A stretch of DNA of 64,000 nucleotides, taken from NCBI GenBank assembly GCA_019897865.1, contig GCA_019897865.1_4532.1; one strand, 5' to 3'. The position numbers and the translations under genes were made by a program. The DNA comes from a phage. Position 1 is the stretch's first letter. Each line of letters begins with the position of its first letter. The notes under the pieces are model-generated. The model worked only from the letters and a program-made list of their open reading frames with translations. It ran no database searches and was not told the DNA's origin. This document shows positions 4,158 through 8,548 of this stretch, one piece after another.

Positions 4158-4513
4158 TAGAACGTTTCTCCTTTTAAAATAATTACTGTAAACTTTGCAG
4201 TTTTTTCACTCTTAATATTCTTGACTAATAAGTATTCTCCTCCAGGGGCATCTTTGTATTGTTTAATAGCTACTATTTCATTTTTGCAAGTAGCTATAAT
4301 CGAATAAAAAGGACGTTCCGTGTTATCTTCTTTTCCCGTATATGCCTCAACATCTTTACACTCTTCTAGAACACCATTCCCAGGTGTATAGTAAAACTTA
4401 TTGCCTGTGATCACAACATCTTTACCAATATCTGTTTTAACTGCTACAAATTTTTGAGCGTAAGTGGTGAAGCTTACGGTAGCCAGCAATGTGGCTAAGA
4501 TTAGTTTTTTCAT
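4157..4513 (-). CDS. secreted/periplasmic protein with N-terminal signal peptide
   Basis: Track ORF 4157..4543; internal ATG at 4513 preceded by AGGAGGG; MKKLILATLLATVSFTTYAQ signal peptide. Confidence 0.55.
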   Translation of the reverse strand: MKKLILATLLATVSFTTYAQKFVAVKTDIGKDVVITGNKFYYTPGNGVLEECKDVEAYTGKEDNTERPFYSIIATCKNEIVAIKQYKDAPGGEYLLVKNIKSEKTAKFTVIILKGETF

Positions 4514-4524
4514 AAACTTCCCTC

Positions 4525-4689
4525 CTATTCCCACAACATACAAATCGCAGCGACAAACATATTAGCAATAGCCGCACCAAGAACTATAAACATCGCCAGT
4601 TCAGAACAATATTCACCAACCAAAGGGGATACTATTGCACAGAGTAACCCCAATGTCAAACACAAGTTGATGATGAAGTTTAAAATCAT
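4525..4689 (-). CDS. small hydrophobic membrane protein (54 aa), not in ORF track
   Basis: Hand-translated MILNFIINLCLTLGLLCAIVSPLVGEYCSELAMFIVLGAAIANMFVAAICMLWE; AAGGAGAG RBS upstream; fills an otherwise empty gap. Confidence 0.45.
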   Translation of the reverse strand: MILNFIINLCLTLGLLCAIVSPLVGEYCSELAMFIVLGAAIANMFVAAICMLWE

Positions 4690-4698
4690 ATTCTCTCC

Positions 4699-4890
4699 TT
4701 ACAACCAACCTTTTGCCTGATAGCCTTTAGAAAATCCATCTTCCCATTCTTCGAATTCCTTTTTGTGTGTCATTGGACAATATGGATTTACTTTATTAAA
4801 CATACCAAACTTGAACCCTGCGGTATACCCCTTCTTAAAAGCTATTGATTCTAAAGAGATCATATTCTTTCTCCTCTTAGAACTCGACAA
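4699..4890 (-). CDS. hypothetical small protein
   Basis: 63-aa ORF tiled in leftward operon. Confidence 0.4.
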   Translation of the reverse strand: MSSSKRRKNMISLESIAFKKGYTAGFKFGMFNKVNPYCPMTHKKEFEEWEDGFSKGYQAKGWL

Positions 4891-5128
4891 TGATTTTGTC
4901 TAAGTGTTCTGCTTCAACTTGGGATAATGTTAACACCTGCACCAAACCTCTGTCAATACCAATTTTAATGACTTGCAAATAATCACCAAAAAGATCTGAT
5001 AAAGAAATAGCATGTTCCGTAACTACAATAACTTCATTACCTTTAGTGTATTCTTTCCACACCCGACCACATTTATAAATGTAATCTTTTTGATCTTCAG
5101 TAATCATTTTAGGTTTGATACTTAACAT
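4877..5128 (-). CDS. hypothetical protein
   Basis: 83-aa ORF tiled in leftward operon. Confidence 0.45.
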   Translation of the reverse strand: MLSIKPKMITEDQKDYIYKCGRVWKEYTKGNEVIVVTEHAISLSDLFGDYLQVIKIGIDRGLVQVLTLSQVEAEHLDKIIVEF

Positions 5129-5493
5129 TACATACTCCCGTATTCTGGTTCAATATTATGTTTACGACAAATGGTATCCCAACGTTCATTACCAAAACTT
5201 CTTCCATGTAGAGCGTTAAATGCGAAATGCTCTGCCAACCACAATACTACATCATCAGGATCTGTGTCAAGAGGAATTCTAAACTCTCGATCATAACGCA
5301 TACGCAGAATAAAATCCTTATCATCTTCAAGGAGATACATGTGACTTTTAGCCCGTGATGCCAAATCAAAGAAAGGAGGCTCATCTTTCCAAACGTGACG
5401 CTCAACTTCAACACCATGATCTACTACCAGAGTAGCGATCACCTCTCTCATTTCTTTACTAAACATATTACCTCCATTAACCAATGAGTTCAA
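5128..5493 (-). CDS. hypothetical protein
   Basis: 121-aa ORF, abuts neighbours. Confidence 0.5.
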   Translation of the reverse strand: MNSLVNGGNMFSKEMREVIATLVVDHGVEVERHVWKDEPPFFDLASRAKSHMYLLEDDKDFILRMRYDREFRIPLDTDPDDVVLWLAEHFAFNALHGRSFGNERWDTICRKHNIEPEYGSM

Positions 5494-5665: not shown

Positions 5666-6012
5666 AGATTATCAAAATAACTAGCGAATAAAAGACGGCC
5701 CTCTAACCGTGCCTTCCTTTGATCTTCAGCATACACGATTTCTGGATTACCACTATCAATAAAAGCATTCTCCATCTTTTCTAAAATATTTAACCACTCT
5801 CTTCTACCTGTCTCCTCTTCTTCATCTGTATACGGCGCACTTCTATTTGGATACAAAACACGCATCAGTTTAGTGGGGATCATGACAAACGTGCTATTGT
5901 TTGCCTTCTCGCGGAAGGCTTTAATTCCTGCATAGATTACCTTCCCCAAAGCTGCATCCAAATCCATCAGGTCACTTTCTTCTATTTGAATTTCATCGTG
6001 TACAATTTTCAT
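5656..6012 (-). CDS. hypothetical protein
   Basis: 118-aa ORF. Confidence 0.5.
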   Translation of the reverse strand: MKIVHDEIQIEESDLMDLDAALGKVIYAGIKAFREKANNSTFVMIPTKLMRVLYPNRSAPYTDEEEETGRREWLNILEKMENAFIDSGNPEIVYAEDQRKARLEGRLLFASYFDNLWS

Positions 6013-6296
6013 CGTGCCTTCTCCCGATCTGCGTCCAATTTCAACAAGAAGGTTGCATACTCTTCTGAGCCTTGATGCAAGAACATACGATAAGAACTTA
6101 CCAGTTTCTTGGTCGTTGTATAACGTTCCATTTCCCCAACAACACCTCCACCCAGGGTGTAGAGCACAACACCCTCAAACCCAACATGAGTTACTACTTC
6201 AACCAAGTCTGTGTTATCCCAATGGTAGTTAGGTGACACAATAAGATCGCCAACTGCCAGTTTAATGTTTGCTACTTCATTTTGTGAATAATACAT
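6009..6296 (-). CDS. hypothetical protein
   Basis: 95-aa ORF overlapping neighbour by 4 nt. Confidence 0.5.
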   Translation of the reverse strand: MYYSQNEVANIKLAVGDLIVSPNYHWDNTDLVEVVTHVGFEGVVLYTLGGGVVGEMERYTTTKKLVSSYRMFLHQGSEEYATFLLKLDADREKAR

Positions 6297-6308
6297 TTGG
6301 TTCTCCTC

Positions 6309-6602
6309 TCACATTAAGACACGTTTTGTATCGATGGGTGCATTATCAAACATGTTAAGAACATTGTCAAGCAGTTTTACTAATTCATTTGTAATTTGTT
6401 CTTTTGAACGGGAGGAAGTGAGCACTTTGCTTTCACCAACGATATGCATAACTTTTATAGGAGCATCTAAAATAATGTTGTGCTGACGATCCTCTTCAAA
6501 AGAAGCCAACCATTTCTCGTTGTTACCGTGTAAGGCTACAATGACACCAAAACCGTTAATTGTCTCAGAAATATTCTTAGTTGCTAAAGTAATGTTCATC
6601 AT
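6309..6602 (-). CDS. hypothetical protein (first gene of leftward operon)
   Basis: 97-aa ORF; tandem ATG ATG preceded by GAGGT. Confidence 0.5.
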   Translation of the reverse strand: MMNITLATKNISETINGFGVIVALHGNNEKWLASFEEDRQHNIILDAPIKVMHIVGESKVLTSSRSKEQITNELVKLLDNVLNMFDNAPIDTKRVLM

Positions 6603-6627
6603 CTACCTCTCTTGTTAATGTTCATAT

Positions 6628-6686
6628 ATGATACCTGAAAATAATTTCAGATCAAGTATTGACATGCTTTTTAGTCCTGTTAAGAT
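6628..6686. promoter_or_regulatory. Divergent sigma70-like promoters: rightward TTGACA-N16-TGnTAAGAT, leftward TTGATC-N16-TATCAT
   Basis: Rightward -35 at 6659-6664, -10 at 6681-6686 with TG at 6678-6679; leftward -35 is rc of 6650-6655, -10 is rc of 6628-6633. Confidence 0.5.
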
Positions 6687-6716
6687 CAACTCATACAAAA
6701 CAAGAGGAGAAAACAA

Positions 6717-7151
6717 ATGCAAAACATCAAACTAACTTGGACCGAAGCTAAAGAAGCAATGAAGGAAGGTAGACGTGTTGAGCACAGTTATTTTTGCGGT
6801 GGTGAATGGTTTGAGATGCGAGATGGTGTTATTCTCGACGAACAAGGTTATAACATGGAAACTTGGTTCAGAGGGGAAGCTTGGCAGGAAGAGGGTTGGT
6901 CTGTAATTGAAAAAGAAGACAGTAAGGAAGAAGGCGTGTTGTCTAATGTAGAACGCAAGATGAGGGAAACAAAGATACCTGCTTTGGATTTTGTATACCT
7001 GGAAGAACTTGTGGCAGCATCTTTTGTAGCAGGAAATCTTTGGAATACACCTGTTAGCCGACTGGAGAACCAAAATAACCCATCTGCTCGTAATCACAAG
7101 CTTTATAAGGGTAAAGGTCACAACAAATTAAAGAAAGGAAAGAAGAAATGA
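6717..7151 (+). CDS. hypothetical protein; N-terminal region weakly DUF2829/Tad2-like
   Basis: 144 aa; EAKEAMKEGRRV...GEAWQEEGWSV pattern; lysine-rich tail. Confidence 0.5.
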   Translation: MQNIKLTWTEAKEAMKEGRRVEHSYFCGGEWFEMRDGVILDEQGYNMETWFRGEAWQEEGWSVIEKEDSKEEGVLSNVERKMRETKIPALDFVYLEELVAASFVAGNLWNTPVSRLENQNNPSARNHKLYKGKGHNKLKKGKKK

Positions 7152-7294
7152 TCTACAAAAACAAGTTCACTGGTTGTCTCCGTAAATTTATCGATAAGAA
7201 AGGGTATGTTTCTCTTGACAACGGGGTTACATGGACAGAGAATGGCACTTCAGAACAGCTGATCAAAGCTTTGCCTTACTACGAGGAGGTTTAA
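7148..7294 (+). CDS. hypothetical small protein (48 aa), not in ORF track
   Basis: ATG overlaps upstream stop; ends at TAA immediately before next ATG. Confidence 0.35.
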   Translation: MIYKNKFTGCLRKFIDKKGYVSLDNGVTWTENGTSEQLIKALPYYEEV

Positions 7295-7618
7295 ATGTCA
7301 AACAGTTTGTTTAGCGTGTCAATTGCACCACGTGTCAACATCCGTTGTCAGTTTGTTACTTTACCTGGTGTAACGCATATCACATTAGAATACGATCCTC
7401 GCTCACGAGACAACCCAATCACAGGGAAAATTGATTGTGCTTATGGAGACTTTGTTATGGATCACCAAACCCTCTTATGCTGTGTGCAACGCTTACAGGC
7501 AGGATCTTTATACATCTTTAAGAAAACAGTGTTCCAAGAGATTGCTCAAGCAGTTGAAAGCGGTATGGAGACTCTTAACGTTATGATTGAAGCAGCCAAC
7601 CAGAAGGAGGTTTTATGA
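7295..7618 (+). CDS. hypothetical protein
   Basis: 107-aa ORF with GAGGAGG RBS. Confidence 0.5.
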   Translation: MSNSLFSVSIAPRVNIRCQFVTLPGVTHITLEYDPRSRDNPITGKIDCAYGDFVMDHQTLLCCVQRLQAGSLYIFKKTVFQEIAQAVESGMETLNVMIEAANQKEVL

Positions 7619-7872
7619 CACTTTATCACGTAACCACTGAAGGCGATACCGAAGGTCGTACTACGAAAGATTTAGGGTATGTTGAAGCAGATTCCCCTGA
7701 ACACGCAATTAAGTATTTGCATTCCATCGGTAAATATGCGACTTATGAATATACTATCTACAAGGTTGAAGTTAGCCCTATACAAGTGGCAACTCCTATG
7801 GTAGAGTTGAAACATCTTAAGGCAAAAGTAAGACCTGGTATAGTGTCCGATTACAAAGGGGAAGTAAAGTGA
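7615..7872 (+). CDS. hypothetical protein
   Basis: 85-aa ORF, 4-nt overlap with upstream gene, AGGAGG RBS. Confidence 0.5.
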   Translation: MTLYHVTTEGDTEGRTTKDLGYVEADSPEHAIKYLHSIGKYATYEYTIYKVEVSPIQVATPMVELKHLKAKVRPGIVSDYKGEVK

Positions 7873-8081
7873 GTGGATGGATTAAAGTATCTGGTACCGA
7901 GGATGTTCCTATCGGAGAGTGGCTTGTAATCATGGCAAACGGCAAGAAGGGATTCTGTGAAGTTAACAAAACACGCAATGGCACGATAGCTGTTATCAAT
8001 GGTCATTTTTATTTTGACTTGGCACCTGTGATCGCATACCATGCACTACCAACATATGAAGAGGAGATTAACAATGGCTAA
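7869..8081 (+). CDS. hypothetical protein
   Basis: 70-aa ORF, GTG start overlapping upstream stop. Confidence 0.45.
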   Translation: MSGWIKVSGTEDVPIGEWLVIMANGKKGFCEVNKTRNGTIAVINGHFYFDLAPVIAYHALPTYEEEINNG

Positions 8082-8397
8082 CAAAGAACCACATGTATAC
8101 ACTGCACTGGTAAAGCACTTGAACAAAGAACGTAACAAGATCATTGCAGATTATCGTAAATTTAAACGTAGTAGTCTAAATCGTAAATACATGCCACATG
8201 CAGCTTTTGACGCTACACGTGCAGTGTTTCGTGCAAAGATTGCAGAAATGGATAATCTGCTTAAGCTTGCACGATTATCTATTCAGGCATCCAAAGTAAC
8301 AGGAGTCACTCACTTCTTTGACTTCGATACTAAAGCACTATATGCACCAGAAGCAGGTGAACAATTGATTTATCTACTTACCAAAAATAAGTGTTGA
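8074..8397 (+). CDS. hypothetical protein
   Basis: Track ORF 8041..8397; ATG at 8074 preceded by GAGGAG. Confidence 0.5.
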   Translation: MANKEPHVYTALVKHLNKERNKIIADYRKFKRSSLNRKYMPHAAFDATRAVFRAKIAEMDNLLKLARLSIQASKVTGVTHFFDFDTKALYAPEAGEQLIYLLTKNKC

Positions 8398-8439
8398 CTT
8401 TTTTCAAAAAATATGCTACCCTAACCCCGAAGGGTCGAG

Positions 8440-8548
8440 CGATAGCGAGTATAGATTATGTAATAGATTAATCTCTATCGTTAGATGTTCGAAGAACAGA
8501 GATTTAAGTACTTGTTCTTATCGGTAGATGATCGTAAGATCAAGAACA
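8440..8548 (+). promoter_or_regulatory. Repeat-rich intergenic control region (direct and inverted repeats, candidate weak promoter TTGTTC-N17-TAAGAT)
   Basis: cgatag/ctatcg inverted repeat; tagatta x2; tcgttagatgttcg vs tcggtagatgatcg direct repeat; aagaaca at 8492-8498 and 8542-8548 with inverted copy at 8513-8519. Confidence 0.4.

Follow-up and report, generated by a model that had tools for sequence, protein, structure and literature searches.

The DNA under study, a stretch of 64,000 nucleotides called the window throughout, matches Escherichia phage ESCO13 as well as several other phages with 100% identity in its region 6000-8500, and by sequence the window is assigned to a phAPEC8/ESCO13-like myovirus (Phapecoctavirus, Stephanstirmvirinae). 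A block of minus-strand genes stops at position 6602 and is followed by a first plus-strand gene, and the open reading frame (ORF) was found exactly where the preliminary description had placed the first rightward gene (Table 1). The consensus scan predicted a promoter upstream of it with 10 of 12 consensus matches and a TG upstream of TAAGAT. On a metagenomic contig with a distant homolog (L010) the -35 element, the extended -10 element and the leader match the window almost base for base. Comparing window positions 6659-6719 with this contig, TTGACA, N16/17, TG-n-TAAGAT and the leader follow each other in nearly identical form, and the leader CAAACAAGAGGAGA-AAACA-ATG is shared upstream of L010:3677. 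Despite the conserved promoter and leader, the coding regions have strongly diverged and the middle region of the L010 protein is different. Promoter and leader may constitute a conserved early-promoter cassette. At its end the gene overlaps the next one (7148..7294) in an ATGA, an arrangement of stop and start codons that indicates translational coupling of the two genes; the overlap was also found in L010 and in a further homologous locus (L011), although the downstream genes there differ. The neighbouring genes encode small proteins matching recent Pfam families, namely Phage_tudor (PF24144; 6009..6296, minus strand), DUF7325 (6309..6602, minus strand) and DUF7247 (7295..7618, plus strand), and none of the neighbours in the window was recognised as an anti-defence gene. 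DUF7325 also adjoins the L011 homolog, which indicates local synteny across distant relatives.

Table 1. Features of the first rightward gene and its upstream region in the window.
Feature	Position	Strand	Basis
Sigma70-like promoter, predicted	6659..6686	+	consensus scan; kept upstream of the L010 homolog
Promoter -35, TTGACA	6659-6664	+	consensus scan
Extended -10, TG-n-TAAGAT	6678-6686	+	16-nt spacer from -35
Ribosome-binding site AAGAGGAG (Shine-Dalgarno)	6702..6709	+	7 nt 5' of ATG, read from sequence
Early ORF, 144 aa	6717..7151	+	program ORF list
N-terminal domain, aa 1-66, minimal Tad2-like fold	6717..6914	+	homolog alignment and structure model
Variable acidic linker, aa 67-90	6915..6986	+	alignment indels, low conservation; low pLDDT
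Conserved C-terminal module, aa 91-144	6987..7148	+	alignment of close homologs
Basic tail proper, aa 126-144	7092-7148	+	within the C-terminal module
ATGA stop/start overlap with the next gene	7148..7151	+	ORF list

The encoded protein was aligned with 21 close homologs (52-99% identity), nearly all of them from phage contigs of about 140-155 kb. This alignment and the structure model revealed an N-terminal domain of about 66 residues (about 65 in the preliminary description) and the lysine-rich tail which had been described from the sequence before. Of 37 invariant columns, most fall into the C-terminal module, including LE-x-LVAAS...W-x-TPVSR...PS-x-RN-x-KL-x-KGKGHNKLKKGKKK; the module starts with a DF-x2-LE helix (about residues 92-106), followed by PVSR...N-x-KL-x-KGKGHNKLKKGKKK. 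The linker between both parts varies in length and sequence among close relatives. A full-length AlphaFold2 model was confident for residues 1-66 only, with a pLDDT below 50 for residues 67-92. Counting charges gives about -8 net for the N-terminal domain, against about +10 for the 30 residues at the C-terminal end. Among the PHROGs, the whole protein was assigned to phrog_22208 and the N-terminal domain to phrog_3474, with a match at E 2.1e-30 covering positions 2-63 of the 64-residue profile. A second copy of either module was not found in the 64-kb window.

Using a profile of the N-terminal domain in an exhaustive HMMER search over 1.84 billion representative proteins (E<=0.001), a total of 320 relatives were found, most of them stand-alone proteins of 60-70 residues. 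This mini family is characterised by a near-invariant set of residues, H23 (86%), F26 (96%), E30 (98%), E42 (94%), G44 (92%), Y45 (67%), W50 (76%), R52 (74%) and W61 (95%). The window protein carries the full signature and scored 99.6 bits with our own HMM of the mini family. The preliminary description had suggested a DUF2829/Tad2-like anti-defence domain and had called the motif match weak. Weak it was: the Pfam scan of the 144-residue protein at E<=10 matched no family, PF11195 ('Tad2-like', formerly DUF2829; gathering score 25 bits) included, and PF11195 was likewise not matched by 12 close homologs. Our own HMM from eight DUF2829 sequences hit the ORF with E=0.16, the top match among 980 ORF segments of the window. 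As positive controls served eight DUF2829 proteins from annotated phage genomes, which scored 69-95 bits on PF11195; they include the SP8 ortholog of SPO1 Tad2, with which the published residue numbering was reproduced. When the relatives were scanned individually, 37 of 95 matched PF11195 and at most 6 any other family. All these matches were below threshold (best 20.8 bits), some of them running end to end (positions 1-72/73). Reciprocal HMM scoring separates the mini family cleanly from the DUF2829 controls, with 35-101 bits within the former, 96 bits or more within the latter and 3.5-18 bits, all positive, across the two. A profile-profile alignment with hhalign gave 75% probability over 21 columns (alpha1 and beta1), and 68-92% in global or greedy settings. 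Searched against the PDB sequences, phmmer and a narrow family profile returned noise only; with the broad N-domain profile SptTad2 and ModTad2 became the top two matches (E 0.24-0.85), both co-linear with the N-terminal helix and the C-terminal DW-I/V-E strand. A word-indexed profile search with the broad alignment returned none of the PF11195-annotated proteins.

Structure prediction was clearer. A domain-only AlphaFold2 model, built on a 95-sequence alignment, reached a pLDDT of 88.3 and a pTM of 0.73. It consists of the helices alpha1 (8-16) and alpha3 (55-58) and the strands beta1 (20-23), beta2 (32-35), beta3 (38-41), a short beta4 or bridge around residue 46, and beta5 (61-64), with a tight turn, D36-G37, joining beta2 to beta3. 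Compared by Foldseek with 350,542 PDB chains, this model placed Tad2 chains on all ranks from 1 to 8, these being chains of SPO1 Tad2 (8WJE/8SME/8SMG/8SMF) and ModTad2 (9EIB), with query-normalised TM-scores of 0.57-0.67, probabilities up to 0.97 and E-values of 0.3-1.4. Beyond rank 8 the scores fell to about 0.2, and the assignment of the Tad2 fold is therefore regarded as solid. With the low-confidence full-length model (pLDDT 61) Tad2 came only third (E=2), and this result did not count as a test. Because 37 of 95 relatives match PF11195, with at most 6 matches to any other family, and because structure comparison singles out Tad2, the DUF2829 similarity is not considered a matter of chance. 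The best-supported statement of this analysis, made with high confidence, is that an early-type promoter drives a protein in which a minimal domain with the Tad2 fold, from a family that is separate and unclassified, precedes a conserved helix and a polybasic tail. The preliminary observation is hereby confirmed. Its interpretation is supported in part: fold and distant homology agree with a DUF2829/Tad2-like domain, while the Pfam test at the sequence level and the canonical polar contacts do not.

Tad2 is a homotetramer in the published structures, with alpha2 and beta2 building V-shaped dimers, two of which lock into each other along alpha1. The pockets for gcADPR lie between protomers; beta4 and alpha3 contribute to them, together with the beta1-beta2, beta3-beta4 and beta4-alpha3 loops. 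In SPO1 Tad2 the ligand is contacted by W25, N26, I63, T65, D67, H71, W73, S76, T78 and D79. About 99% of Tad2 proteins are reported to have kept the gcADPR site intact. A variable insertion between beta2 and beta3 (residues 36-59 in SPO1) bears alpha2 and provides the V-dimer interface, and in Hgm and Spt Tad2 the cyclic-dinucleotide site. Known structures comprise SPO1 Tad2 (8SME, 8SMF, 8SMG, 8WJE), HgmTad2, which is AcrIIA7 (8KBI), ModTad2 (9EIB) and SptTad2 (8WJD). Tad2 and the window protein, both short phage proteins of early or accessory regions, have in common the N-terminal helix with a similar motif, EA-x2-A(L/M)-x2-G-x-K/R-V, the antiparallel sheet, the short alpha3 and a last strand with (D/G)W-I/V. 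The helix alpha1, along which the Tad2 tetramer interlocks, is the segment most alike between the two families. In contrast, the window domain is about 25 residues shorter, with the insertion and its alpha2 replaced by the two-residue D36-G37 turn (a gap of about 24 residues in the global hhalign alignment). The C-terminal helix and polybasic tail were seen on none of the canonical Tad2 proteins examined.

Residues were compared by a provisional map, which combines low-confidence hhalign anchors, HMMER alignments and the secondary-structure register and is not a coordinate superposition. According to this map the aromatic positions are kept, SPO1 W25 corresponding to F26 (F in 96% of the mini family), W73 to W50 (76%) and W85 to W61 (95%). 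N26 corresponds to C27 (T/S/C/A in the mini family) and D84 to G60, D67 is not conserved in the mini family, and S76, T78 and D79 are variable or replaced (R52, G53, E54, A55). The W-N-G motif of Tad2 (W21/N22/G23 in Hgm) thus reads F26-C27-G28, with the aromatic residue kept and the Asn lost, and of the W...S-x-T-D ligand cluster only W50 and W61 are retained. The window protein lacks these polar contacts and has H23, E30, E42, G44, Y45 and R52 of its own instead. The conserved residues of the mini family appear to fall into the loops that build the Tad2 pocket, which speaks more for a pocket retained with a different chemistry than for a domain in decay.

The lysine-rich tail was analysed separately. 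All close homologs share G[KR]GHN[KR]L followed by K/Q-K-G/R-K-K-K at the extreme C-terminus. Counted over the N-domain proteins, G[KR]GHN[KR]L stands at the very end of 20 close and 4 distant ones, the latter (P0028, P0029, P0040 and P0050) with middle regions unrelated to the window protein. The window gene and L011 agree in 11 of their last 15 residues, 5 of which are encoded by different codons; selection therefore acts on the peptide and not only on a ribosome-binding site of the downstream gene. For the GKGHNKL core, conservation as a by-product of such an embedded site was rejected on the same grounds; for the last Lys codons, an embedded ribosome-binding site of the overlapping downstream gene is a possible cause. 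A profile search with the tail for other architectures returned only shortened gene calls of the same module, and DNA pattern scans of IMG/VR added a single family member besides a chance match at an internal position; the motif was found in this architecture only. The C-terminal module had no match in PDB, Pfam or NCBIfam. Among 41 long N-domain proteins, 10 end in some basic tail, 2 of these being SEC-C-like zinc knuckles. In two metagenomic relatives (P0094, P0124) a C-terminal SEC-C-like zinc knuckle, CxCGSGxKFKxCC, replaces the lysine tail. Four other N-domain proteins carry different K/R-rich C-terminal tails, and a basic appendage thus recurs on this domain.

By tblastn the N-terminal domain was found in 471 phage records, mostly from Klebsiella, Escherichia and Salmonella phages, including phi92/rV5-like, phAPEC8-like, T4-like Klebsiella, FelixO1-like and T5-like phages. 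In the loci compared, the gene keeps its position relative to a divergent switch or an early region. In phi92 (Justusliebigvirus, same subfamily) the gene of gp217 is the first rightward gene at the same divergent switch; two-module proteins are encoded by the first gene after the switch in L010 and by the second in L011, and a stand-alone domain by the second gene after the switch of a podovirus (L012). The T5-like phage saus176N encodes a stand-alone protein of 65 residues in the pre-early region of its left terminal repeat, downstream of A2 (L014:4001-4198, corresponding to MF431741.1 7432-7629); pre-early denotes the first-step-transfer region. This protein (P176N_0012) and gp11 of Aeromonas phage Tola belong to the stand-alone phrog_3474 proteins of 60-70 residues, which share the domain family and signature; they consist of the bare domain, to which the linker and the KGKGHNKL tail module are added in the window protein. 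The mini-Tad2 domain of phi92 gp217 (L015:2501-3052) comprises residues 1-66. Its N-terminal domain is 59% identical to residues 1-69 of the window protein, and unlike there the C-terminal half is a different domain without a basic tail. A further window gene (5128..5493, minus strand, 121 residues) is 61% identical to residues 73-183 of gp217 (E 6e-51); its domain had no Pfam match. The fusion of the two domains in phi92 and their separate genes in the window suggest a functional link between them. Overall, 31 of 46 matches of the domain in long proteins are N-terminal, with many unrelated C-terminal regions attached, and no Pfam domains were found among the fusion partners. Tad2-type domains which share a single small early protein with a linker and a second short module are likewise known from sponge-sponge fusions (Acb4-Tad2, Tad2-Sequestin); the partner in the window protein differs, as it is a short helix with a disordered polybasic peptide and not a recognised sponge domain. 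One of the DUF2829 controls, gp05 of Alcaligenes phage QDWS595 (L007:68-655), is an Acb4 (PF13876)-Tad2 fusion of the kind known from the literature.

Our main reading, to which we assign a probability of roughly 40%, is that of a sponge-like binder of a nucleotide-derived molecule, with the tail as polyanion tether or second function. The analysis shows the ORF with its promoter and ribosome-binding site, the two modules, the Tad2 fold, the status as a separate family, the differing residues and the conserved position of the gene; oligomerisation, ligand binding, the anti-defence role and the function of the tail are what we infer for the window protein. Module 1 (residues 1-66) is the Tad2 core minus the beta2-beta3 insertion; it would oligomerise through the conserved alpha1 helix and would form an inter-protomer pocket where Tad2 binds gcADPR, lined by the family-specific residues Y25, F26, E30, E42, Y45, W50 and R52. 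The molecule sequestered there would be small and nucleotide-derived, and it is probably not the 3'cADPR/gcADPR of type I Thoeris but another immune signal. The invariant polybasic end of module 2 (residues 91-144) might anchor the acidic sponge domain on a polyanion, be it nucleic acid, ribosome or membrane; alternatively, the polybasic peptide could contribute a second activity. Sponge-like binding is favoured because every characterised member of the closest fold family, Tad2, is a signal sponge, because the conserved residues lie in pocket-forming loops, because Tad2 sponges are known to have switched ligands (to His-ADPR, N7-cADPR, cCMP/cUMP and cyclic dinucleotides), and because sponges are typically short homo-oligomers. 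We are aware of observations which count against it. Known sponge pockets are positively charged, while the N-terminal domain is strongly acidic; the equivalents of N26, D67, S76, T78 and D79 are not conserved on the provisional map; no recognised anti-defence gene is found among the neighbours; and the many unrelated C-terminal fusions would also suit a generic protein-binding adaptor. Moreover, a Tad2-like tetramer may not form, because the insertion with alpha2, which builds the V-dimer in SPO1, is absent. A farther-reaching version of the sponge-like reading appears quite unlikely. It would regard the phrog_3474 mini-Tad2 proteins as a widespread, distinct sponge clade of enterobacterial phages (the 471 phage records, which include rV5/phi92/phAPEC8-like, FelixO1-like, Klebsiella T4-like and, with the domain in the pre-early region, T5-like phages). 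With a pocket remodelled by H23, F26, E30, E42, Y45, W50 and R52, they would sequester an immune or regulatory small molecule not known as a phage target. In the invariant KGKGHNKL-KKK peptide one would then see a new kind of module, for targeting or for a second function, which brings the sponge to nucleic acid, ribosome or membrane.

A non-sponge adaptor role is a serious competitor, although we consider it somewhat unlikely. The small Tad2-like beta-barrel would bind proteins or nucleic acids and the tail DNA, RNA or ribosomes, and the protein would act as an early host-takeover factor, directed for example against part of the nucleoid or of the transcription or translation machinery. Such a role agrees with the promiscuous fusions, with the acidic core and with the basic tails. 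However, most relatives are bare domains of 60-70 residues without a tail, conservation seems to concentrate in the loops of the Tad2 ligand pocket and not on an exposed face, and the characterised proteins of the closest fold family are all sponges. A canonical Tad2, i.e. a homotetrameric sponge of 1''-3'/1''-2' gcADPR which blocks type I Thoeris, is a very unlikely identity. In its favour are the fold, the same as in SPO1, Hgm and Mod Tad2, the three aromatic positions kept as F26, W50 and W61, and the early gene position, but the protein has no PF11195 match and its family stays at or below 20.8 bits, compared to 69-95 bits for true members. N26 has become C/T/S, and D67, S76, T78 and D79 are not conserved; HgmTad2 mutants at equivalent residues (W21A/N22A and S90A/T92A/D93A) bind markedly less gcADPR. 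As these polar contacts and the alpha2-carrying insertion are missing, canonical gcADPR sponging is unlikely. It is highly improbable that the Tad2 resemblance of an unrelated small alpha+beta domain arose by convergence or chance: direct sequence searches fail, the Foldseek E-values are only 0.3-1.4 and hhalign is confident over 21 columns only, yet two independent structure-comparison methods put Tad2 far above all else, the PF11195 matches among the relatives (37 of 95) far outnumber those to any other family (at most 6), the N- and C-terminal motifs match co-linearly, and the cross-family HMM scores are all positive.

Tad2 sponges are a main route by which phages shut down immunity based on nucleotide signals (Thoeris, CBASS, Pycsar), and the list of their ligands keeps growing. 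Profiles of the PF11195 type, on which, as far as checked, present detection is based, miss the mini family entirely, and no description of a minimal Tad2-fold family was found in the searchable literature. Nevertheless, many virulent phages that infect E. coli, Klebsiella or Salmonella carry the mini family, among them groups used in therapy (phAPEC8-like, rV5/phi92-like and T5-like phages). If the minimal fold sequesters a signal, it would be a 60-residue scaffold of changed specificity and might lead to a host signal not yet known; if it does not, the Tad2 fold would have been recruited for another early function. Either outcome refines anti-defence annotation. The conserved polybasic tail poses a puzzle separate from that of the N-terminal domain.

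Two other identities were rejected. Atd1, the anti-TIR gene reported for Phapecoctavirus and Justusliebigvirus, is a MazG-like nucleotide pyrophosphatase, and the ORF has neither a MazG nor any other Pfam match. In one GenBank record (LR597654.1, phAPEC8_ev052; L001:4718-5152) the ortholog is labelled 'tRNA methyltransferase', probably a mis-annotation; the label had no support from Pfam, NCBIfam or PDB sequences, and the predicted fold is Tad2-like. Profile positions 10-48 of the N-terminal domain also matched two giant proteins of about 2,500 residues with many Tudor/Agenet domains (P0022, P0051; 6-16 repeats, summed E down to 1e-22), and Flg_new repeat proteins (P0120, P0134) were matched by the profile as well. 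Behind these matches there is either a remote resemblance of small beta-barrels or hairpins, or noise summed over the repeats. In Staphylococcus phage SpaA1 (L003) two DUF2829 genes, P60 and P61, are adjacent. The contig L010 with the 221-residue homolog P0040 has further genes at 81-1205, 4339-4914 and 5779-6111, which code for a STAND/AAA NTPase-like protein, for a Trypsin_2 protease directly downstream of P0040 and, further on, for a Rap1a-like protein.
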